Positions 3,759 to 52,530 of a stretch of DNA of 64,000 nucleotides are shown one piece after another (position 1 is the stretch's first letter; the number at the start of each line of letters is the position of its first letter). Position numbers and translations under genes: made by a program. The DNA is taken from contig JBBTWP010000004.1 of NCBI GenBank assembly GCA_038062675.1, positions 6,751 to 70,750 of the forward strand, read 5' to 3'. Origin of the DNA: Patescibacteria group bacterium (lineage in GTDB: Bacteria > Patescibacteriota > Minisyncoccia > Phycocordibacterales > UBA1550). The notes under the pieces were generated by a model. It saw only the letters and a list, made by a program, of their open reading frames with translations, made no database searches and was not told the origin of the DNA.

Positions 3759-3836
3759 CTGCGGAATCGTGTCGCGCAAGTCCGTTGGGCGCGACCGGCC
3801 TGCGGAATCGTGTCGCGCAAGTCCGTTGGGCGCGAC
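3759..3836 (-). repeat. Two tandem copies (41-nt period) of a 37-nt double-hairpin unit 'U', minus orientation
   Basis: CTGCGGAATCGTGTCGCGCAAGTCCGTTGGGCGCGAC occurs at 3759-3795 and again, identical, at 3800-3836. The reverse complement is GTCGCGCCCAACGGACTTGCGCGACACGATTCCGCAG. The flank at 3837-3853 reads (reverse complement) AAGGTACGGATTTTTT, the same 5' junction as in elements E1-E3. Confidence 0.85.
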
Positions 3837-33623: not shown

Positions 33624-35333
33624 ATGCATATTGGACAAGAAAAGCTAAAAGAAATATTGCTTGAATCCGGACTCGTGAGCGATGAGGATTTTGAATATGC
33701 TACTGCAGAGGCTCGGCGCAGCGGACAGTCGCTTTCTAATGTCTTGGTTGGAGAAGGCAAAATTTCTGAAGATTATTTTACCGAACTCCTTGCTCCCTAT
33801 TATGGTGTTCAGGTTGTGAATCTCAAAAAAGAAACTATAGACCATGAGATTTTGGAGCTTATTCCTGAAATATACGCGAAGTCAAAGAATATTGTATTGT
33901 TTTTTTATGATAAAGAGAAAGGTATTGCAAAACTTGCCATGCTCGACCCCTTTGACTACGATACTATTGAGTATGTGCGGGCGAAGCTTGATGCGTGGGT
34001 CGAACCTTATCTCTCGACAGTCGCAAGTGTTCGTTATGGGCTCAAGCAATACAGCACAAAAATCGGTGTTGGCTTTGAACAAATCATTTCTGAAAATGTT
34101 GAACAGTCGCTTTCTGTTGCTGAAGAAAAAGATCTTTCAAAAACAGCTGCGTCGGTGCCTATTGTTACCATCCTTGATAATGTTATCGAGCATGCAGTTA
34201 CTTTAAATGCATCCGATATTCATTTTGAGCCCCTTGAGCATGAACTTTTGGTGCGTTTTCGTGTCGATGGCATCATGCAGGAGGTGGTGAGTCTCCCGAA
34301 AGCAATTGCTCCTGTTTTGGTCGCGCGCGTAAAAATCCTCGGAAGTCTTCAGATTGACGAACACCGCACCCCTCAGGATGGACGTTTTCGTTTTGATATG
34401 GACGATGGATCAAATATTGATTTACGCGTAAATATCATGCCGATTTTCCACGGGGAGAAAGTGGAAATGCGTCTCTTGAAGAGCTCTGCGCGACCACTGA
34501 CGCTCAAAGACCTTGGTTTTTCGGATGCAAATACCGCAGTCCTTGTAAATGAAGTCAAAAAACCCCACGGTATGATTTTAGTGACGGGGCCAACAGGACA
34601 TGGAAAAACTACAACACTGTATGCGGTGTTGCATATTCTCAATAAACCATCCGTGAACATTACAACCATTGAGGATCCTATTGAGTATGAGTTTCCGCGC
34701 GTAAATCAAACACAAGTAAACCAGAAAGCGGGGATTACGTTTGCAAATGGACTTCGCGCGCTTTTGCGTCAAAATCCCGACATCATTATGGTGGGTGAAA
34801 TCCGTGATAATGAGACGGTTGAAATTGCAATTCATGCCGCGCTTACGGGGCACCTTGTGCTGTCATCACTTCACACCAATGATGCCCCCTCTGCTATCCC
34901 ACGCCTTTTGGATATGGGTGCGCCGGCGTTCCTGTTGTCTTCAACTATCAACATGGTTATCGCTCAGCGTCTTGTGCGACGTATTTGTGCGTCGTGTACC
35001 GAGTCATATCCTGTAAGCCCAGAAATGGCGCGCCTTCTCAAGGCGCAAATCGAGCTGGCGGGGACCACAAATAGTAATGTTCCGGCGAGCTTGTTTCGTG
35101 GTAAGGGGTGCAAGGTATGCGGGAATTCCGGATATCAGGGGCAGATTGGTATTTTCGAGCTTTTGCGGGTTACTGAATCAATTCGTGCATTGATTTTGGA
35201 CGAAGCATCCATTCCGGAAGTGCGAAAGAAAGCAATTGAAGAGGGGATGATCACGATGTTTGAAGACGGGCTCGACAAGGTTGAGCGGGGAGTTACGACT
35301 GTGGAGGAGGTGCTCAGGGTAGTAAAAGAATAG
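33624..35333 (+). CDS. pilB: Type IV pilus assembly (extension) ATPase, PilB/GspE family
   Basis: N-terminal MshEN-like domain, Walker A GPTGHGKTTT, Asp box, Walker B DIIMVGEIRD, His box, tetracysteine motif (CASC ... CKVCGNSG). Confidence 0.92.
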   Translation: MHIGQEKLKEILLESGLVSDEDFEYATAEARRSGQSLSNVLVGEGKISEDYFTELLAPYYGVQVVNLKKETIDHEILELIPEIYAKSKNIVLFFYDKEKGIAKLAMLDPFDYDTIEYVRAKLDAWVEPYLSTVASVRYGLKQYSTKIGVGFEQIISENVEQSLSVAEEKDLSKTAASVPIVTILDNVIEHAVTLNASDIHFEPLEHELLVRFRVDGIMQEVVSLPKAIAPVLVARVKILGSLQIDEHRTPQDGRFRFDMDDGSNIDLRVNIMPIFHGEKVEMRLLKSSARPLTLKDLGFSDANTAVLVNEVKKPHGMILVTGPTGHGKTTTLYAVLHILNKPSVNITTIEDPIEYEFPRVNQTQVNQKAGITFANGLRALLRQNPDIIMVGEIRDNETVEIAIHAALTGHLVLSSLHTNDAPSAIPRLLDMGAPAFLLSSTINMVIAQRLVRRICASCTESYPVSPEMARLLKAQIELAGTTNSNVPASLFRGKGCKVCGNSGYQGQIGIFELLRVTESIRALILDEASIPEVRKKAIEEGMITMFEDGLDKVERGVTTVEEVLRVVKE

Positions 35334-35546: not shown

Positions 35547-36770
35547 ATGGCAATATTTACTTATGAAGCATATGATGGTTCCGGCGCTGTTCTTCGGGGG
35601 GAGTACGAGGGCTCTTCTCAAGACGAGGTGTCGCAGTATCTTTTCAAGAGAAGTCTTACGCCCATTTCTATCACCATGCTTTCTGGTAAGCACGGTGGCA
35701 TGCAGAAGTTTCTATCTTCTTCCCCGTTTGAGAAACTTGATGCTGTTGATGTAATGTTCTTGGTACGAAACCTCGCCACGACCGTTAAGGCTGGGCTTTC
35801 ATTGATGGAGGCACTCGATATTCTTATTGCCGATGCAGAGAAAAACATTTTAAAGAAAGTGCTCAGGGAGGTGCAGGCCATGGTCAAAAATGGGCAGCAG
35901 CTTTCTGCAGGGTTTGAAGCGTATGCTAGTTCATTCCCTCCTGTTTTTATAGGAATGCTGAAAGCCGGAGAAGGCTCTGGTCAACTCGACAAAACACTTG
36001 CGGAGCTCGGTCGTTATTTGGGTAAAGAATATGCTCTACGGAGCAAAATAAAATCTGCACTGATGTATCCGGTTATTCTACTTGTTGCATCTACGGGAGT
36101 GGTGACGCTTCTTCTTATGTTTGTGTTGCCGCGGCTTACCAAGGCGTTTTTAGCGAGTGGCGTTGAGCTCCCCCTTCTTACTAAATTCTTTCTTGCTTTA
36201 TCCAATGCACTTACGTGGAGTTATGCGCTCGATGGTGTAGTGTTTGTGGTGGCGTTGTGGTTCTTTTTGTATTTTCGTACAACACAACTTGGGAAAAGAT
36301 TTTTCTTTTTTACTATGTCGCATGCACCCGTGGCAAGGGATTTGGTAAAAAAGGTCGCGCTCGTACGTTTCTCTCGCACGCTCTCAAATCTTATTGGTAG
36401 TGGACTTTCGGTTGTGGAAGCACTCGACCTATCGTCGCAATCGATTGGGAATCGGACATATACACTTGCGCTCAATCAGGTAATTATGGAAGTCAAGACC
36501 GGTAGCCCTATTTCCGGCGCACTTGAAAAATTTCCAAAACTTTTCCCGCGCATGCTCGTGAGTTTGGTGGTGGTGGGGGAACGTACGGGAACACTTGGAC
36601 AGATTCTTTCCACTTTTGCCGACTTTTATGAAGAGGAAGTTGACGGCAAGCTTAAAGACCTGACCGCTGCTCTGGAGCCGATACTCTTGCTCCTTATGGG
36701 AGTTTTGGTGGGGTCGATTGCCGTTTCTATTATTCTCCCTATCTATCAACTCGTGGGTAATTTTGTCTAA
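35547..36770 (+). CDS. pilC: Type IV pilus platform protein, PilC/GspF family
   Basis: Two GspF-type repeats and three TM segments. Typical length (407 aa) and position after pilB. Confidence 0.9.
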   Translation: MAIFTYEAYDGSGAVLRGEYEGSSQDEVSQYLFKRSLTPISITMLSGKHGGMQKFLSSSPFEKLDAVDVMFLVRNLATTVKAGLSLMEALDILIADAEKNILKKVLREVQAMVKNGQQLSAGFEAYASSFPPVFIGMLKAGEGSGQLDKTLAELGRYLGKEYALRSKIKSALMYPVILLVASTGVVTLLLMFVLPRLTKAFLASGVELPLLTKFFLALSNALTWSYALDGVVFVVALWFFLYFRTTQLGKRFFFFTMSHAPVARDLVKKVALVRFSRTLSNLIGSGLSVVEALDLSSQSIGNRTYTLALNQVIMEVKTGSPISGALEKFPKLFPRMLVSLVVVGERTGTLGQILSTFADFYEEEVDGKLKDLTAALEPILLLLMGVLVGSIAVSIILPIYQLVGNFV

Positions 36771-36777
36771 ACTTAAT

Positions 36778-37245
36778 ATGCACATACATACAACATCATC
36801 AGGATTTTCAATGTTTGAACTTTTGATTGTCTTGAGTATTGTTGCTGTTTTGGGAGGCGGCGGAGTTGGATTTTATCAAAATTTTTCAAAAGATGTTGAG
36901 CTCAAGACTACGATGCGAGTGATAAATGCCGACTTGCGCACTGCACGAGCAAAGTCTATGGCGCGACAAGACGACCTAAAGTGGGGGGTGCATTTTGTGA
37001 ATGATGGCGCAAATCCACATTATTACGAACTTTTCTCAACTCCTACCGATTATGCGAATGCAAGTATGTCCGTGAGCGCAACCACCACTCTTTCTAAAGG
37101 TCTTACATTTTCTGATCCGAGCTCGGGAACAAAAGACATTATTTTTTACAAAGTCGCCGGCACTACGACAGCGTCCACCGTGGGTGTGACCTCAAGCGCC
37201 GGCACACAGACGCTCACTATTTCGGCGTTGGGGACAATTTATTGA
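36778..37245 (+). CDS. Minor pilin / pseudopilin (prepilin-type N-terminus)
   Basis: MHIHTTSSG|FSMFELLIVLSIVAVLGG with G-1, F+1, E+5. Start at 36778; the track's extension overlaps pilC. Confidence 0.75.
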   Translation: MHIHTTSSGFSMFELLIVLSIVAVLGGGGVGFYQNFSKDVELKTTMRVINADLRTARAKSMARQDDLKWGVHFVNDGANPHYYELFSTPTDYANASMSVSATTTLSKGLTFSDPSSGTKDIIFYKVAGTTTASTVGVTSSAGTQTLTISALGTIY

Positions 37246-37246
37246 T

Positions 37247-37768
37247 ATGTATAAAAAAGTTTCCAATTACGCCTTTATTGATAGCCAAAATCTCAATCTT
37301 GCAATTCAGGATCAGGGATGGAAGCTTGACTTTACCCGTTTTCGAGTATACCTCAAAGAAAAATATGGTGTGACAAAAGCCTTTCTGTTTATAGGGCACA
37401 TCGAAGGCAATAATCATTTGTATATTTCTCTACAGTCAGCTGGGTTTCTTTGTGTTTTTAAACCGACACTCGAGTACAAGGATGGTACAACCAAAGGCAA
37501 CTGCGATGCGGAATTGGTTCTTCATGCGATGATAGAGTATCCTAACTACGACAAAGCGATAATCGTTACCGGAGATGGGGATTTTTATTGTTTAGCCCAG
37601 CACTTGCTTGAAAAAGATAAATTGCAGGCAATTCTTATTCCCAATAAGTTGAAGTTCTCAGGACTTTTAAAGTTTAAGATATTTCGCCCTTATTTGCGAT
37701 TAATGAACGATTTAAAAGAGCTATTAAGGTATAAAAAGAAAAGGCCCTATGAGGACAAAACCTCATAG
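37247..37768 (+). CDS. NYN-domain (LabA/YacP-like, PIN-fold) predicted ribonuclease, paralog 1
   Basis: YAFIDSQNLNL ... KGNCDAELVL ... YDKAIIVTGDGDFYCL: the N-terminal Asp, central Asp and GDGDF acidic constellation of NYN domains. No signal peptide or TM segment. The ATG lies 2 nt after the pseudopilin stop. Confidence 0.8.
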   Translation: MYKKVSNYAFIDSQNLNLAIQDQGWKLDFTRFRVYLKEKYGVTKAFLFIGHIEGNNHLYISLQSAGFLCVFKPTLEYKDGTTKGNCDAELVLHAMIEYPNYDKAIIVTGDGDFYCLAQHLLEKDKLQAILIPNKLKFSGLLKFKIFRPYLRLMNDLKELLRYKKKRPYEDKTS

Positions 37769-38632: not shown

Positions 38633-41600
38633 ATGTTAATGAATATAAAAAGGCAAATGATTTTGAAAAAAATTTTTGGATACGTCAAAAAATTTTCTAA
38701 ATTTAGTGTCGTTTTTTTGTTAATTGTAACTTTTGGGTTTGCGGATGTTGCAACAGTGGTTTTTGATGGGCTTGGTGCGCCAAAGTTGGCGCAGTGGACA
38801 GCAATCAAGAAAGCAGAAGCAGTGGCGCAGGGAGATGGAGAGATTATATACGGCGATAGTAATGCTAGTCTTGTAAGGAGAAGAGATTGGACAGGAACTT
38901 TCAGCGTGGAGTATGACACCCTTGCTGCTGGAACAGTAATTCGCCATGTTGTCATTAAAGCTTCACCGGTTAGGAATGAAATGATTGCCGGTATACAAAC
39001 CACTGCAGGCACGCTTTACATACAACGCTTTAATGGCACAAGTTGGTCCAATGAGTGGAATGTGACGGTTGGTGATGGAAATCTCCCTCGTTTTGACATC
39101 AGCTTCGAGGGCACTTCTGGAGATATGATGGTGGTGTATACAGGCAACACAGCCACTGACGGACAGGAACTGGTGTATAGAATTTGGAATGGCTCTACTT
39201 GGACTGTTGCGGCCAATTTGGGCTCAACGAGAACGACTGGCATTGTTGACGGTATAGCTATGGAGCGTCGCGGAGGCACTGATGAAATTGCGCTTGTGTA
39301 CGGAGACAGAAACTTCGACCTTTCGGCAAATTTTTGGGATGGTGCAACAAATGCATGGAAGGGGGAGCCGTCGGCAGCATTGGAAACAAGCTTGGCAAAA
39401 GTGGGAACCGCGACGACTCTAACTAACTTTTCTTTTGACCTTGAATTTGAATCCACATCCGGCGAGCTTTTGATTGTGTGGGGTGCTGATGCAGTGTTGG
39501 ACGGCAAGTATGTCACTCGTGGTGCTGGGCCGGCAGGCGCGTGGGGTTCTGTTACCACCAATACGGCTTTTCTTGAAGAGCCGACTGATGTGGAGCTTTC
39601 TGCCGACCCAAACTCAAATTACATTGCGTATGCGAATAGCTCGGATAACGGCGCAGACTCCGATGCCATAGTCTGGACGGGCACTGCGTGGGGGACGGCG
39701 TTTCAAGTTGACGCTTCAAACGACACGGTGGGTGCCGGAACAAGTAACAATGCGGTAAACTGGGTGACGAGTGGTGCCCAGACGCGTGCTGTGCTCACCT
39801 ACGACGATGCCAATGCAGCGGGTGTTGACTGGGCAGTATATAACAAAAATACCAATGCATGGGCTCTCCAAACCGACTGTACTACCGCTTGCTCGTCGCA
39901 ACCACTGAGTGGTGACGATAAGGTTCATCGTTTGCGACGCAATCCGTTTAATCAAGCTGAACTTCTTTTTTTGGGAGTAGATAACACTTCCGATTTATGG
40001 GTGAAAAAATTGGTCTTCGACGGAACTAATTTCACATGGTCAAATGCCGATGGCGGAGTAGCTCTTGAAACTGTGATATCGAGCGTTACCGGTTTTGCGG
40101 CAGATTTTGCATACAATAGGTACATTCCTCCTACGGTTACCACCACCCTTGCGACCGGCTCCGACCCTGCCGCCGCTACTATTGCCCCCGAAGCTGTAAC
40201 GACCGATGTAAATCAGTTTACTCTGCAGACAAGCAGTGGAACGGAAACAGTAACGTCGGTTACAGTGAATCTTTCAACCGGCAGCGGGGTGGATTCGCTT
40301 TATATTACTGATAATACCAATACGGTTTTGGGTTCAATAATCGCGCCGCTGTCGGGGGGCTCTAATGTGGTTGCCGTTTCGGGGATGTCAGCAGGTACAT
40401 CCGCCACAACATTCAAGGTTCGTGTTACTCCCCTGCCTCACAGTTTAATGCCAGCAGTGACGGGTGCAGCATACGCCATCACCGCACCCGTCACTGCATG
40501 GGCGGGGAATGCCACGACACACGCGGGGAGTGATACGAATACCAATGCACTTACAATTGACAATGCATCCCCTTCGGGAGCTACAAGCGCAAGTGGTACA
40601 GCAGGTGACGCAAAGGTAACACTCAACTGGACGACATCGGCGTCCACCGATTTTAGTCGCTCGGTGATGCTCCGGTGGACAGCATCAACGCCGAGTGCAG
40701 CGGTGCCCGAAGAGGGGACGGATTATGCGAATGGGAATACTGTTGGTAGTGGTTCAAAAATTGACTACAATACAGGAGCCAGTCCCATAGGTGTCGCCTT
40801 CGACTCCTCCACCAACTCTGTTTGGGTGGTGAATAGTGGTGGCAATACTGTCACCAAGCTCACCGCTGCCACTGGCGCTTTGGTGGGAACATATACAGTG
40901 GGAAATGCTCCTCGAGATGTCGCCTTCGACTCCTCCACCAACTCTGTTTGGGTGACGAATACTGGTGGTGGTTCCGGCAATACTGTCACCAAGCTCACCG
41001 CCGCCACCGGCGCCTTGGTGGGAACATATACAGTGGGAACTGGTCCTTTTGGTGTCGCGTTCGACTCCTCCACCAACTCTGTTTGGGTGGCGAATAATGG
41101 TAGTGGTTCCGGCAATACTGTCACCAAGCTCACCGCCGCCACCGGCGCCTTGGTGGGAACATATACAGTGGGAACTGGTCCTTTTGGTGTCGCGTTCGAC
41201 TCCTCCACCAACTCTGTTTGGGTGGCGAATAATGGTAGTGGTTCCGGCAATACTGTCACCAAGCTCACCGCCGCCACCGGCGCCTTGGTGGGAACATATA
41301 CAGTGGGAACTGGTCCTTTTGGTGTCGCGTTCGACTCCTCCACCAACTCTGTTTGGGTGGCGAATAATGGTAGTGGTTCCGGCAATACTGTCACCAAGCT
41401 CACCGCCGCCACCGGCGCCTTGGTGGGAACATATACGGTGGGAACTGGTCCTCGAGATATCGCCTTCGACTCCTCCACCAACTCTGTTTGGGTGGTAAAT
41501 AATGGTGGAAATACTGTCACTAAGCTCACCGCCGCCACCGGCGCTTTGGTGGGAACATATACGGTGGGAACCGGTCCCATAGATGTCGCCTTCGACTCCA

Positions 41601-43132
41601 CCACCAACTCTGTTTGGGTGGTGAATAATGGTGACGATACCGTCACCAAGCTCACCGCCGCCACCGGCGCTTTGGTGGGAACATATGCAGTGGGGGTCAG
41701 TCCCATTAGTGTTGCTTTCGACTCCTCCACCAACTCTGTTTGGGTGGTGAATAATGTTGGCGAAACCGTCAGCAAAGTGGATGCAGTGGGCGCCACGGTT
41801 GTCTGTGTCCGCACTGATGCTGCATCGACCGCCATTACCGACATCAACGGTGCCGGTGGCACCAGCTGTCTCACTACCGCCCTTACGAACGGCACCGCCT
41901 ACAGTTACAAAGTTTTCCAAAAAGACGCAAATGGCAACTATGACGCCGGTGTCGTGCCGACGGGTTCGCCGTTTACACCAGCTGCCATCACAACCACGCT
42001 TGCCACTGGTTCCGACCCTGCCGCGGCAACAATCGCCCCCGGAGCCGTCGCAACTGATGTTGATTTATTTACTTTGCAAACAAGCAGTGGAACGGAAACA
42101 GTAACTTCGGTGACGGTGAACCTTTCGACAAATAGTGGTATCGGTTTGCTCGCCATTACCGACAATGCAAACACTGTTTTGGGGTCGACTGCATCGCCGG
42201 TTACGGGTTCTAACGTTATTACGGTCTCAGGTATGTCAGCAGGTACCACGCTCACCACGTTTAAAGTCCGCGCCACACCTCTCAGTCATGCGCTGATGCC
42301 CGCACCTGCAGGCGGTGCGTACGCCATCACTGCGCCAGTGACAAGCTGGGCGGGAGCAAATACGCACGCAGGGAGTGATACAAACTCCAATGCGCTAACG
42401 ATTGACAACGGGTCGCCTGCTGGCACAACAGGCGCTGGCGCGGTAGCTGGGAACGCACAGGTCACGGTGAGCTGGACGAATCCTGCTGATGCTGATTTTC
42501 AAAAGGTAATTATTTATTGTAAGACCGCAAGCATCACTGAAACGCCAACAGAAGGATCTGATCCAACGGTGGACGTCGCCGCCTGCGACGCAACAGCACG
42601 TGTCAAGTATAATGGTTCAATAAGCCCGCAGATTATCACCGGCCTCACTAACGGTACGTTGTATTATTTTAGAATTTATGCGCGTGACACCAACGGTAAC
42701 TTTACCGCTATTGCATCTACACAGCAGGTTTCTGCTACGCCCGCGGCTGGAGGCGGACTCCCCGTTTCAGGGACACTCACCTCTGGGGTTTTTGACACAG
42801 GAACTGCTGATGGGGCGACGTTTAATTCTATTTTATGGAATGGAACCACTATCGGGACAGGAGCAGTACGCTTCCAGTTTTCGGCATCGAATAGTAGTAC
42901 AGGTCCATGGGACTATAACGGAGCAGGTTCAGGGACATGCGGGGCATTGGACTGGTTTAACCCCGGAGCTCTTGATACCGCTGTGGAGCTAAAGGGTTCT
43001 GGATGCGCAGCGCTTTGGAACAACAAACGATACTATCGTTACAAGGTACAGATTTGTTCCGCCGCAAATTGTACTGATGTTGGTGCTACTAGTCCTATTA
43101 TAAATAAAATTGTTGTCAGTTGGTCACCGTAA
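38633..43132 (+). CDS. Giant (1499 aa) membrane-anchored/secreted surface protein: N-terminal Trp-repeat propeller-like region, module A1, 8 YVTN-type beta-propeller repeats, module A2, C-terminal Ig/Fn3-like region. Candidate pilus-associated adhesin.
   Basis: N-terminal hydrophobic anchor (FSVVFLLIVTFGF). Seven W-containing repeats spaced 50-65 aa apart. Eight repeats of NTVTKLTAATGALVGTYTVGtGPxgVAFDSSTNSVWVaNnG match the 40-residue YVTN propeller repeat pattern. Encoded inside the minor-pilin operon. The exact start (38633 vs 38657) is uncertain. Confidence 0.85.
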   Translation: MLMNIKRQMILKKIFGYVKKFSKFSVVFLLIVTFGFADVATVVFDGLGAPKLAQWTAIKKAEAVAQGDGEIIYGDSNASLVRRRDWTGTFSVEYDTLAAGTVIRHVVIKASPVRNEMIAGIQTTAGTLYIQRFNGTSWSNEWNVTVGDGNLPRFDISFEGTSGDMMVVYTGNTATDGQELVYRIWNGSTWTVAANLGSTRTTGIVDGIAMERRGGTDEIALVYGDRNFDLSANFWDGATNAWKGEPSAALETSLAKVGTATTLTNFSFDLEFESTSGELLIVWGADAVLDGKYVTRGAGPAGAWGSVTTNTAFLEEPTDVELSADPNSNYIAYANSSDNGADSDAIVWTGTAWGTAFQVDASNDTVGAGTSNNAVNWVTSGAQTRAVLTYDDANAAGVDWAVYNKNTNAWALQTDCTTACSSQPLSGDDKVHRLRRNPFNQAELLFLGVDNTSDLWVKKLVFDGTNFTWSNADGGVALETVISSVTGFAADFAYNRYIPPTVTTTLATGSDPAAATIAPEAVTTDVNQFTLQTSSGTETVTSVTVNLSTGSGVDSLYITDNTNTVLGSIIAPLSGGSNVVAVSGMSAGTSATTFKVRVTPLPHSLMPAVTGAAYAITAPVTAWAGNATTHAGSDTNTNALTIDNASPSGATSASGTAGDAKVTLNWTTSASTDFSRSVMLRWTASTPSAAVPEEGTDYANGNTVGSGSKIDYNTGASPIGVAFDSSTNSVWVVNSGGNTVTKLTAATGALVGTYTVGNAPRDVAFDSSTNSVWVTNTGGGSGNTVTKLTAATGALVGTYTVGTGPFGVAFDSSTNSVWVANNGSGSGNTVTKLTAATGALVGTYTVGTGPFGVAFDSSTNSVWVANNGSGSGNTVTKLTAATGALVGTYTVGTGPFGVAFDSSTNSVWVANNGSGSGNTVTKLTAATGALVGTYTVGTGPRDIAFDSSTNSVWVVNNGGNTVTKLTAATGALVGTYTVGTGPIDVAFDSTTNSVWVVNNGDDTVTKLTAATGALVGTYAVGVSPISVAFDSSTNSVWVVNNVGETVSKVDAVGATVVCVRTDAASTAITDINGAGGTSCLTTALTNGTAYSYKVFQKDANGNYDAGVVPTGSPFTPAAITTTLATGSDPAAATIAPGAVATDVDLFTLQTSSGTETVTSVTVNLSTNSGIGLLAITDNANTVLGSTASPVTGSNVITVSGMSAGTTLTTFKVRATPLSHALMPAPAGGAYAITAPVTSWAGANTHAGSDTNSNALTIDNGSPAGTTGAGAVAGNAQVTVSWTNPADADFQKVIIYCKTASITETPTEGSDPTVDVAACDATARVKYNGSISPQIITGLTNGTLYYFRIYARDTNGNFTAIASTQQVSATPAAGGGLPVSGTLTSGVFDTGTADGATFNSILWNGTTIGTGAVRFQFSASNSSTGPWDYNGAGSGTCGALDWFNPGALDTAVELKGSGCAALWNNKRYYRYKVQICSAANCTDVGATSPIINKIVVSWSP
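40775..41785 (+). repeat. Tandem coding repeats (126-135 bp) encoding the YVTN blades; 40970-41420 is a perfect 135-bp x 3.3 array
   Basis: GGTTCCGGCAATACTGTCACC... recurs at 40970, 41105, 41240 and 41375 (exact 135-bp spacing). I saw no substitutions until about 41421. Confidence 0.9.
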
Positions 43133-43167: not shown

Positions 43168-43671
43168 ATGAAAAAAATACTCAATAATTATGCATATATA
43201 GATAGTCAAAACCTGAATCTTGGTATTCAGAAACTTGAATGGAAATTAGATTATCGGAAATTTAGGATATATCTTGCTGAAAAATACAGCGTTAAGAAGG
43301 CATATATGTTTATCGGTTTTGTTGCATTAAATCAATCGCTGTATGACAATCTCCAAGAAGCGGGATTTATTTTGAGATTCAAACCGACAGTTCCGGATGC
43401 TGACGGTAAAATTAAAGGCAACATAGATGCAGACATGGTTTTGCTTGCAACGCTTGAATTAAATGCTTATGACAAAGCGGTTATTGTTTCCAGTGATGGC
43501 GATTTTTATTCGCTCGTGCAGTATTTGCACGAGAATGGTAAATTAAGAGTTGTATTGAGCCCAGACATTAAAAATTGTTCAACGTTGCTTAAGCAGACAG
43601 CAAGAGAAAAGATATGGTTTATGAATGAATTGAGAAATAAACTTGAGTATAAAAAGAAAAGCACCGCTTAA
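43168..43671 (+). CDS. NYN-domain (LabA/YacP-like, PIN-fold) predicted ribonuclease, paralog 2
   Basis: YAYIDSQNLNL ... KGNIDADMVL ... YDKAVIVSSDGDFYSL. Colinear with paralog 1, with roughly half of the residues identical by eye. Visibly AT-rich. Confidence 0.8.
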   Translation: MKKILNNYAYIDSQNLNLGIQKLEWKLDYRKFRIYLAEKYSVKKAYMFIGFVALNQSLYDNLQEAGFILRFKPTVPDADGKIKGNIDADMVLLATLELNAYDKAVIVSSDGDFYSLVQYLHENGKLRVVLSPDIKNCSTLLKQTAREKIWFMNELRNKLEYKKKSTA

Positions 43672-43762
43672 GGATGAAACCTTAAACAGTACTTTCCCTA
43701 GAAATACATTTTAATTATATCAAATGGCTAAATTATGTCAAGCATCAAACAAGCACCGTAAT

Positions 43763-44287
43763 ATGAACATATTTTCTTACAAAAAAATACATACCGCACG
43801 TGGAGTCACGCTCCTTGAGCTTCTTATTTATGTGGCGGTGTTCTCGGGGATTGCGGTTGTGGTTGCTGATACCTTTCTCTCGATAGCAAAAGCACGCGGG
43901 CAGTCGGAGGCGCGCGCAGAGGTGAATTCCGCGATACGGTTTGCGACGGAGCTTGTTCGACAAGACTTAAAGGCGGCGACAGCGCTCGCCACACCCGCGT
44001 TGGGGACACCATCCGCGACTTTGGTTGCGACTGTAGCTGGGGCGACCGTCACCTATGACGTAGTTTCGGGACAGCTTCGTAGAAATGCTGTGGCGGTAAC
44101 CGGAAGTTTGATTTTTGTTGATACTCCTTCGTTTACACGGCTCGAGAACTATAACTCGGTGGTGGGGGTGACAGGGTTTGGTGCGACCACTACGGCAGTT
44201 TCGGTCTTGATGACCTTTCGATATAATGCTTCAAGCACCGACTGGACATACGCGGATACACTTCGCACGACCGTGACTTTGCGGTAG
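43763..44287 (+). CDS. Minor pilin / pseudopilin (prepilin-type N-terminus)
   Basis: MNIFSYKKIHTARG|VTLLELLIYVAVFSGIAVVV with G-1 and E+5. Start placed at 43763. Confidence 0.7.
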   Translation: MNIFSYKKIHTARGVTLLELLIYVAVFSGIAVVVADTFLSIAKARGQSEARAEVNSAIRFATELVRQDLKAATALATPALGTPSATLVATVAGATVTYDVVSGQLRRNAVAVTGSLIFVDTPSFTRLENYNSVVGVTGFGATTTAVSVLMTFRYNASSTDWTYADTLRTTVTLR

Positions 44288-50949: not shown

Positions 50950-52530
50950 TCACTTCTCTACTGTAAATCCAAACATCATGCCCGCTTCGAGGTGCTCGGC
51001 AATGTGGCAGTGAGCCATCCATTCGCCGGGGTTGGAAATATCGAGGAGAATGTCGGCGTATTCACCAGCAGGTACAAGCACGGTGTCTTTCCAAACAAGA
51101 TTTTTTTGTGCCGTTCCATTTTTGTCGAGTACCAAAAACCGTTGTCCGTGGAAGTGAATAGGGTGTTGCATTGGGTGCATGGATTTTGGGTCATTGAAGA
51201 TGCGAATTTTTACTTTGTCGCCAACCTTGAATTTCCAGTCGATGTCCATGTTGGCCTTGCCCGTTCCTTGATCAAGAATAGCCCATGAGATTTGATCACT
51301 ATTTTGATCGCTCATCATTTCCCCGTCATCTTCCCATTCAATGCCGCCTTTTGGTGCGGACATCATCATGTTTCCACCCATCATTGAGCCGTCAGGCATC
51401 ATATGTCCACCACTCATGTTTCCCGCTGCACCACCCATCATGCTGACCGAAAGTGAAATTTGTTTGTCGAGAGCTTTTGTGAAGAATGCACGGAATGGGT
51501 CGATGCTTTTAATAGTCTCGAGATTTGAATGCAGGGTATTAAAATTGAAGACGGGTTTGCGCAGGCGTTTTGATTCCGTAACCATTATTTTCCCGAGCGT
51601 TGTTGTCTGGTCAGGCGTTTTGTTTTGAAGAAGGATGTCGCCTTTTTTGTTGAACAATACTTCAACAATAGCACGCTCAGAAGGACCAAGGGTGACGGTA
51701 TCAACCCACTCTTCTTTTTCGTATGCACCATTATCACCTCCAACAAGCTTCATTTTCGTGCCCTCAAACGCCAGACGAAACGGACGTACATTTGCAGAGT
51801 TGGTAAATGAAAAACGTACCACGTCGCCCTGCTCAACGCTCTGTGTATAATTTGTTTCTCCGTTGACAAGCATGGTGTTACCGAAACGTCCCATGAGTGC
51901 GTAGTCGGCATTTTTTGTGTAAAAAGGTGTGATTTTTCCGTCTTCGACTAGAATGTCATCAACAAACAAAGGAACTTCGCGGTCGACAGTATTCCAGTAC
52001 GTGGGGTTTTTTGGTGTTACTAAAAAGTTGCCGTAGAGTCCGAGTTCTTGTGCGTAATCCTCGCGGACATGAGGGTGATACCAGTAGGTGCCGGCATCGG
52101 GGAACGTAAGTTTGTAGGTAAATGAATCCCCGACAAGGATTGGGTCTTGTGTTACGTGTGGAACTCCATCAAATGCATTTTCGAGGCGAAGTCCGTGTGA
52201 GTGGACGGTGGTCTCCACATCGGTTTCATTTTTGAAATTTACGGTGATGGTTGCGCCTTGGGGAACCTTGAGGGTTGGTCCGGGGATAGAGCCGTTATAT
52301 GCGAGCATTTTTACATCATTGCCATTGATATTTTTTTTAACCCGGCTTGCGGTGAGCTCAAATGTGTCACCGTCTTTTAGCTCGACAACGGAAGAGGGTT
52401 GTAGAGCGGCAAGTCCACGCGTACTTCCAGAAAATTGTCCTGAAGGAGACCCGCTTTGTTTTGTTGCTACGATTGCAAAAATAAAAGCAAGAAGGAACCC
52501 TGCAATGATGATATTTTTTTTGTATTTCAT
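50950..52530 (-). CDS. Multicopper oxidase (CueO/CopA-PcoA-like) with a Met/Gly-rich insert
   Basis: Copper-ligand motifs HSHG, WYHPH, HPIHFHG, HCHIAEHLEAGMM. Met-rich MMGGAAGNMSGGHMMPDGSMMGGNMMM. Start at MKYKKNIII (52530); the track's 73-aa extension overlaps the upstream ATPase gene. Confidence 0.88.
   Translation of the reverse strand: MKYKKNIIIAGFLLAFIFAIVATKQSGSPSGQFSGSTRGLAALQPSSVVELKDGDTFELTASRVKKNINGNDVKMLAYNGSIPGPTLKVPQGATITVNFKNETDVETTVHSHGLRLENAFDGVPHVTQDPILVGDSFTYKLTFPDAGTYWYHPHVREDYAQELGLYGNFLVTPKNPTYWNTVDREVPLFVDDILVEDGKITPFYTKNADYALMGRFGNTMLVNGETNYTQSVEQGDVVRFSFTNSANVRPFRLAFEGTKMKLVGGDNGAYEKEEWVDTVTLGPSERAIVEVLFNKKGDILLQNKTPDQTTTLGKIMVTESKRLRKPVFNFNTLHSNLETIKSIDPFRAFFTKALDKQISLSVSMMGGAAGNMSGGHMMPDGSMMGGNMMMSAPKGGIEWEDDGEMMSDQNSDQISWAILDQGTGKANMDIDWKFKVGDKVKIRIFNDPKSMHPMQHPIHFHGQRFLVLDKNGTAQKNLVWKDTVLVPAGEYADILLDISNPGEWMAHCHIAEHLEAGMMFGFTVEK

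Follow-up and report, generated by a model that had tools for sequence, protein, structure and literature searches.

A young beta-propeller with a tract of identical blades in a predicted secreted giant protein of a Patescibacteria group bacterium, and its assembly-dependent blade number

A perfect tandem repeat with a unit of 135 bp lies within a giant gene on a stretch of 64,000 nucleotides from a Patescibacteria group bacterium (GenBank assembly GCA_038062675.1, contig JBBTWP010000004.1, positions 6,751 to 70,750). This stretch is referred to as the window, and positions are those of the window unless another contig is named. The host is an uncultured organism represented by a metagenome-assembled genome (MAG) from Hainich groundwater. 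The repeat units encode blades of a beta-propeller, and the tract very probably represents the most recent step in the building of a young propeller by tandem blade duplication. Its copy number of three cannot be trusted; different assemblies of the gene give three units, two units or a gap. A single blade of the YVTN/lactonase type would have been amplified to a ring domain, which is inserted in an FN3-like loop of a giant, presumably secreted protein. In-register unequal recombination or replication slippage between the 135-bp units would then have re-duplicated an internal blade, to give two or more blades of identical or almost identical DNA sequence. The same process could add or remove whole blades in frame (from seven to eight and back), gene conversion would homogenise the units and spread single-base variants across them, and the perfect identity may in part result from the unrolling of a collapsed repeat to its consensus.

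In a self-comparison of the window offset by 135 bp, identity was unbroken from 40968 to 41301, which corresponds to a perfect periodic tract of 469 bp or 3.47 units (40968-41436, plus strand). The 30-mer GGTTCCGGCAATACTGTCACCAAGCTCACC stands at the start of the units at 40970, 41105, 41240 and 41375. These starts and their 135-bp spacing had been proposed in an earlier reading of the sequence (the original prediction) and were reproduced by the self-comparison, and realignment likewise gave no substitution within the tract of the window assembly. The onset of mismatches had been placed too early, at about 41421; the first base that breaks the period is 41437, 16 bp further, where a G replaces the A of the preceding units. 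A run of 334 consecutive matches has a probability of about 2e-14 even with a per-site identity of 91% between blades, so that chance is excluded as the source of the perfect tract. TRF delimited a wider array (40841-41756; period 135, 6.9 copies, 91% matches); the window contains no other large tandem array. Perfect unit identity is a property of the window's assembly, and the real units may differ among themselves, since another assembly (contig L001, described below) carries G for A at the equivalent position of its units.

The array is read in frame within an open reading frame (ORF) of 1499 amino acids (aa) at 38633-43132 on the plus strand; an alternative start at 38657 gives 1491 aa. 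Translation confirmed that the period, a multiple of three, keeps the units in frame. The perfect tract codes for the C-terminal two-thirds of blade 2, for blades 3 and 4 and for most of blade 5. Three identical 45-aa blades, TGPFGVAFDSSTNSVWVANNGSGSGNTVTKLTAATGALVGTYTVG, are indeed present as predicted, at aa 803-937 of the host protein. They belong to a propeller of eight repeats (blades 1-8, aa 716-1057), and a strand in front of blade 1 (SKIDYNTG) could close the ring. The flanking blades had been described as 41-42 aa long and lacking the loop insert, which comprises three residues. This holds for blades 1, 6 and 7, the only blades of 42 aa without the insert, and fails for the upstream blade 2 (aa 758-802), which has 45 aa and carries the insert already (GGGSG; TNTGGGSGNTV). 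Thus, the insert predates the triplication. The stop-free repeat also produces long spurious ORFs at 40754-41920 and 40765-41895 on the minus strand and at 40965-41498 in another frame of the plus strand.

The class of the propeller was assigned by profile models. PF10282 matched the propeller segment with 31.7 bits, above its cut-off of 21.7, and the whole protein with 23.9 bits. The 42-residue YVTN repeat model TIGR02276 gave 12.1 bits (cut-off 27.85), so the protein is not a scoring member of that model. TIGR03866, describing a beta-propeller associated with PQQ-dependent catabolism, gave 125 bits (cut-off 287) and the YncE model NF052280 gave 48.8 bits (cut-off 400). For all curated NCBIfam models the protein scored below the respective cut-offs. 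The repeat is YVTN-like by its fold and by the matches to PF10282 and TIGR03866, a similarity at the superfamily level only. Rings of this class canonically have seven blades; the window has eight repeats, contig L001 has seven, and two further contigs (L002 and L003) are gapped in the array.

The divergence between blades was used to judge their relative age. Median identity over the eight blades is 82.2%, and blades 3-5 are 100% identical: their codon alignment contains no synonymous difference and no difference of any other kind. Among blades 1, 2, 3, 6 and 7, the proportion of synonymous differences (pS) is 0.13 for the scaffold formed by the strands and 0.26 for the loops. The whole propeller thus appears young, with the identical triplet as a still younger layer, the youngest of the array, and the very recent blade amplification that the original prediction had postulated is supported by the contrast in synonymous differences. 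Amino-acid variation between blades 1-7 falls almost entirely into two loop segments (alignment columns 1-6 and 18-26); outside of them only two single substitutions were found, both in blade 7. The ratio of nonsynonymous to synonymous differences (pN/pS) is 0.92 in the loops and 0.09 in the scaffold. Positive selection on the blade loops is not supported by this value, which lies close to and not above 1.

AlphaFold2 (AF2) was run on single sequences of the segment containing the FN3-like domain and the propeller, in the eight-repeat form of the window and in the seven-repeat form of L001. The eight-repeat model reached a predicted template modelling score (pTM) of 0.60, with a predicted local distance difference test (pLDDT) of about 70-83 in the propeller and a single residue at or above 90. 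For the seven-repeat model the pTM was 0.66, the pLDDT of the propeller about 80-90, and 74 residues were at or above 90. Both forms are predicted to close as rings with four strands per repeat, at moderate confidence; the prediction of the FN3 parts on either side was poor in both cases (pLDDT < 50). Foldseek returned YncE and 1L0Q with a probability of 1.0. The best geometric fits of the eight-repeat model are closed eight-bladed propellers (human ODA16, 5nnz, TMt 0.86; TBLR1, 5naf, TMt 0.82), while its top matches by E-value are still YncE and 1L0Q. The seven-repeat model fits the seven-bladed YncE (TMt 0.82, root-mean-square deviation 2.5 A), with 1L0Q at the top by E-value. The seven-blade form looks the more canonical of the two models, which leans towards two identical units as the native state without being decisive.

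Alignment with four homologs (P0003, P0006, P0010 and P0026), all of which lack the propeller, defines the whole propeller as a clean insertion of about 347 aa in an FN3-like loop, between '...NGNTVG' and 'ATVVCVRT...'. The family itself is defined by a conserved N-terminal domain of about 460 aa, to which the homologs P0002-P0023 align at 34-69% identity and which GTDB loci L009-L014 match at 50-85%; it is common to many giant proteins of Patescibacteria and Saccharimonadales. The domain matched no Pfam model and no PDB sequence. A comparison of blade number between orthologs had been proposed, but no ortholog with the propeller was found, not even in L009, whose N-terminal domain is 85% identical and which is the closest relative found among the GTDB representatives. 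The L009 protein (L009 5881-8313) has only 810 aa and lacks the duplicated module described below, the FN3 domain and the propeller, which indicates that the C-terminal architecture of the family turns over very fast. Among 5.8 billion clusters no occurrence of the propeller was found outside the protein's own 90%-identity cluster, and exact DNA scans found no copy of the unit in GTDB representative genomes or JGI metagenomes. As judged from these comparisons, the amplification appears to be recent and specific to the lineage.

Other members of the family contain tandem propeller arrays of a different kind. P0007 has Kelch repeats (period 141, 5.8 copies, 82% matches) and P0019 a 52-aa repeat (period 156, 5.7 copies, 75% matches). 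This distribution suggests that propellers were repeatedly and independently acquired and amplified in this family of host proteins.

The 90% cluster comprises two further forms of the protein, one of 1446 aa, which is exactly 45 aa shorter, and one of 564 aa, which begins just past the array; the related contigs were reached via the cluster members P0043 and P0044. The 1446-aa form is encoded on L001, a contig of the assembly Hain_H41_02um_R1 with a coverage of 8. Over 23.7 kb, L001 differs from the window by one deletion of 135 bp, by A>G at 41237 and 41372 and by a few mismatches in its last ~50 bp (52359-52405), which lie at the extreme contig end and may be end artefacts. It therefore contains two units and seven blades. 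The A>G difference concerns every unit: all units of the window have A (Ser) and both units of L001 have G (Gly), as has blade 2 at its equivalent position, 40967. The truncated 564-aa gene is present on at least four contigs. Two of them were inspected, L002 (GCA_964358075.1) and L003 (ERZ1292628; Hain_H41_02um_R2, coverage 5), the flanks of which are 100% and 99.97% identical to the window, respectively. In both, a scaffold gap of 100 N replaces a stretch of exactly two units. Position 41437 is G in the window, L001 and L002 and A in L003, so that the 3′ edge of the homogeneous tract differs between assemblies. Outside the array, L003 differs at 51151 and 51157, which indicates a slight strain microdiversity. 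In the gapped assemblies the annotation of the gene is reduced to the C-terminal 564-aa fragment, and its N-terminal half is covered by minus-strand ORFs of 162 and 180 aa; these calls (L002 7257-8291) look like artefacts of annotation.

The Hainich metagenomes were sequenced with 2x150 bp on a NextSeq, and the replicates were separately assembled and scaffolded with metaSPAdes 3.13 (PMC8672522). In sister libraries from the site, insert sizes are about 214-234 bp. The 469-bp tract is spanned by no single read and probably by no read pair, and the copy number in each of these assemblies therefore reflects how the repeat was resolved and is not an observed value. The window contig probably stems from the same kind of short-read assembly, as the naming style of a related H41 MAG agrees with that study. 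From the A/G site, the nearest blade-2-specific base, apart from the site itself, is 141 bp away. Because of this distance an array in which A-type and G-type units are mixed would collapse and then unroll as 'perfect' copies. The original prediction had called the array an assembly-sensitive site, and this is well supported by the missing unit of L001, the 100-N gaps of L002 and L003, the truncated gene on at least four contigs and the sequencing design.

These circumstances give considerable weight to a fixed copy number combined with assembler noise, an explanation to which we assign a probability only a little short of even. A single form of the array would exist, most plausibly with two GPFG blades (the motif of blades 3-5) in a canonical seven-bladed propeller. 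The third unit of the window would be an over-unrolled de Bruijn loop, and the A/G difference would stem from a single array with two slightly differing units, collapsed as a bubble that each assembly resolved differently. The tract is longer than the 150-bp reads and probably than the fragments, four of six contigs fail at the array, and R1 and R2, replicates from the same well and filter, differ in their answer at coverages of 8 and 5. Over 141 bp, k-mers cannot phase the A/G site with the next blade-2-specific base and few reads can. The seven-blade form is the one modelled with more confidence by AF2, and the best-matching models and structures (YncE, PF10282, NF052280, 3vgz) are explicitly seven-bladed. 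Nevertheless, AF2 also closes an eight-bladed ring with acceptable confidence, and propellers of identical blades are reported to tolerate different blade numbers (PMC6805158).

Taken one step further, the assembly argument would leave a single GPFG blade in a propeller of six repeats, with the multi-unit tract as an artefact throughout. The contig ends of L002 and L003 do abut in register, and removal of the Ns leaves 1.47 units. In such an array, however, only a 64-bp segment would occur twice. Since this is easily bridged by 150-bp reads, assemblers should not break there, and the breaks at the array thus argue for at least two GPFG blades. In addition, at least four contigs carry the broken gene (both that were inspected are gapped), two independent assemblies place at least two units, and a ring of six repeats would be atypical for the class. 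We therefore rejected this version as very unlikely.

A genuine polymorphism of the population is a possible explanation, though we regard it as less probable than a fixed number. Seven-blade (G-type) and eight-blade (A-type) alleles would coexist in the aquifer, generated by gene conversion and unequal recombination, and binding by the surface protein would be modulated by the number of blades or by the sequence of their loops. L001 differs in the array only, by one unit fewer and by the same substitution in every remaining unit, and the other 23.5 kb show no differences save the few mismatches at the L001 contig end. The 3′ boundary of the homogeneous tract is shifted in L003 at 41437. A single base that characterises a whole propeller is the pattern that Pereira and Lupas take as independent amplification or homogenisation (PMC9218822). 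The concentration of blade-to-blade amino-acid variation in two loops fits as well, and the different propellers of near-identical blades in other family members imply that this class of module turns over quickly. On the other hand, all differences sit where short-read assembly is least reliable, and bubble popping and loop unrolling would yield exactly such 'all A' and 'all G' arrays. Moreover, the pN/pS of the loops (~0.9) does not exceed 1. The unit-wide A/G difference and the shifted boundary at 41437 fit tandem-repeat dynamics and equally fit bubble popping by the assembler, and for this reason repeat variation in vivo can only be suggested. Likewise, as to a contingency locus, the evidence consists of assemblies of one population that disagree (two units, three units or a gap) and were derived from 2x150-bp data. 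Population copy-number variation in vivo, which is compatible with the two-unit and three-unit assemblies, is a possibility.

The original prediction had gone further and considered structural or antigenic variation of an adhesin. We regard this as speculation: the adhesin role is suggested only by the signal- or anchor-like N-terminus, the FN3-like modules and the pilus locus, and a closed propeller constrains the number of blades. An improbable extension would be that the population carries seven- and eight-blade alleles together with unit-wide Ser/Gly loop variants, and that recombination in the array acts as an in-frame switch retuning the binding face of an attachment protein of the episymbiont. 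To our knowledge, there is no host immune system that would select for variation in an aquifer episymbiont.

Several points also weigh against a tract formed by recent blade duplication as the last step in the growth of the propeller. Unit number and unit identity rest on assemblies, not on reads; three copies could be believed if the window contig derived from long reads. The recombination mechanism is suggested by the pattern of the units, and ring closure and the geometry of the insertion are moderately supported by single-sequence AF2 models with poor FN3 flanks. Table 1 lists the coordinates of the features.

Table 1 Features of the propeller gene, its surroundings and related loci (window coordinates unless a contig is named)
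Feature	Position	Strand	Basis or remark
Host gene, predicted secreted/anchored giant protein	38633..43132	+	ORF list, translation, 100% identical database entries P0001, P0042
Conserved N-terminal ~460-aa domain, defines protein family	38813..40192	+	Homolog alignments
FN3-like host domain split by propeller	40547..41989	+	N-terminal part ends ~40750, C-terminal part resumes ~41795
YVTN/lactonase-like beta-propeller, eight repeats	40754..41803	+	PF10282, TIGR03866, blade table, AF2, Foldseek
Full tandem array (TRF)	40841..41756	+	Period 135; 126 for insert-less blades; 6.9 copies, 91% matches
Perfect 135-bp x 3.47 tract	40968..41436	+	Shift-135 identity run
Blades 3, 4, 5 (TGPFGVAFD...TYTVG)	41039-41173, 41174-41308, 41309-41443	+	Blade table
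Polymorphic unit position	41102 (also 41237, 41372)	+	A (Ser, NNGSGSG) in all window units; G (Gly, NNGGGSG) in both L001 units
Stretch replaced by 100-N scaffold gap in L002 and L003	41158..41427	+	Exactly two units
First period-breaking position	41437	+	G in window, L001, L002; A in L003
T2SSE (type IV pilus / type II secretion ATPase)	33624-35333	+	Pfam E=7.9e-129, upstream of host gene
T2SSF platform protein	35547-36770	+	Pfam E=2.2e-57, upstream of host gene
Pilin-like gene, N-terminal methylation motif	36718..37245	+	Weak PF07963 match
Second pilin-like gene, N-terminal methylation motif	43724-44287	+	Weak PF07963 match
Tandem propeller arrays of homologs sharing N-terminal domain	L007 9681-10627, L008 4655-5483		52-aa repeat; Kelch repeats

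The host protein is identical to NCBI entry MEK7538815.1 ('MAG: hypothetical protein AAB552_03155 [Patescibacteria group bacterium]'); searches for the exact protein, made with the window product, P0001 and P0042, returned nothing. Its modules follow each other as an N-terminal hydrophobic signal or anchor (MLMNIKRQMILKKIFGYVKKFSKFSVVFLLIVTFGF...), the ~460-aa domain, a module of ~260 aa that occurs twice, FN3-like domains and a C-terminal domain. The N-terminus gave no N_methyl match and thus does not qualify as prepilin-type. The ~260-aa module ('TTTLATGSDPAAATIAP...TFKVR.TPL.H.LMPA...ALTIDN.SP', aa ~503-770 and ~1120-1380) flanks the FN3-like domain with the propeller; its copies share 73% DNA identity over the best 218 nt (40139-40356 vs 41990-42207). 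The module is also found at 59% identity in P0026, a much larger protein of otherwise different architecture.

The gene is located in a type IV pilus cluster, surrounded by pilus-assembly genes (T2SSE and T2SSF) and two pilin-like genes in the same orientation. Both pilin-like genes are annotated as N_methyl in L001 and L002. Two paralogs with an NYN domain (predicted nuclease; 37247-37768 and 43168-43671, 53% identical) bracket the giant gene, and each adjoins a pilin-like gene, an arrangement that is also present in L001 and L002. Genes for pilins or prepilin peptidases occur within 8 kb of the homologs P0009 and P0019 and are missing at P0002. With three of the four loci examined showing it, a conserved pilus linkage across the family is suggestive only. 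The signal- or anchor-like N-terminus, the FN3-like modules and the pilus-locus context point to a putative function as adhesin. At a distance from this cluster, an intergenic region (3759-3836) contains a perfect 41-nt x 1.9 tandem repeat. Its unit holds a GC-rich hairpin (GTCGCGC...GCGCGAC), and the hairpin pair is more stable than shuffled sequences (z = -3.9). An Rfam scan of the window, this pair included, returned no match, and the repeat may represent a pair of tandem terminator-like hairpins.

For practical purposes, the copy number of the deposited gene and hence its blade count (seven or eight) should not be accepted as they stand. At least four other contigs list this gene as a 564-aa fragment, which in the two that were inspected results from the gap in the array. 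This caution extends to modelling and comparing the protein and, more generally, to blade counts in repetitive propellers derived from metagenomes. If both alleles do coexist, the locus would allow a test of ring-size variation as a source of functional diversification.

Recent blade duplication in propellers has been described before, and the present case is a further clean example in the little-studied Patescibacteria. Specific to it are the Patescibacteria host, the insertion into an FN3-like loop, the pilus-locus context and the disagreement of replicate assemblies on blade number. A ring as a domain insertion within an FN3-like module is unusual, as is the presence of a different young propeller in each of the protein's relatives. 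Pereira and Lupas (2022, PMC9218822) define 'highly repetitive' propellers by a median blade identity above 60% and count lactonase-like (PF10282) families among them. They report globally repetitive propellers in which internal blades have become 100% identical by local re-amplification, otherwise identical paralogs of six and nine blades, and positions that separate the complete set of blades in one propeller from that in another; they also warn explicitly that blade counts are uncertain since identical overlaps are hard to assemble. The propeller studied here, with eight blades, a median identity of 82% and blades 3-5 fully identical, falls under this definition. It resembles their cases in the internal re-amplification, in a blade number that differs between otherwise identical sequences, in the unit-wide single-base differences and in the assembly caveat. 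In contrast to those cases, which are mostly found at protein termini, it lies in the middle of a protein, and its host is known from an uncultured Patescibacteria MAG. Replicate metagenome assemblies of a single population, and not paralogous genes of a finished genome, are the source of its alternative blade counts. The folding of propellers with different numbers of identical blades was studied on WRAP propellers by Afanasieva et al. (2019, PMC6805158).

With the seven-bladed YVTN/YncE/lactonase propellers (Methanosarcina mazei surface-layer protein 1L0Q, Escherichia coli YncE 3VGZ, leptospiral Lp49 3BWS) the propeller shares a repeat of ~42-45 aa with four strands each. 1L0Q and Lp49 are extracellular or surface proteins, and the same is predicted for the host protein. 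Unlike in these propellers, the window sequence has eight repeats instead of seven, its blades are near-identical and not diverged, and its sequence identity to solved structures is only 13-22%.

Identical intragenic tandem repeats are also known from size-variable surface proteins such as alpha C/Rib of group B Streptococcus, staphylococcal SasG/Aap and mycoplasma Vlp/Vsa. Like these, the gene has long in-frame units with identical DNA in a presumably secreted protein, gain or loss of units keeps the frame, and the array is hard to assemble. The repeats of those proteins build open, linear stalks that fold with any number of copies; the units described here are blades of a closed ring, which should be functional within narrow limits of copy number only. 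The likeness would thus be one of DNA mechanics only. If seven- and eight-blade alleles do exist side by side, a switch between them would be a closed-ring analogue of the repeat-number variation in linear adhesins.

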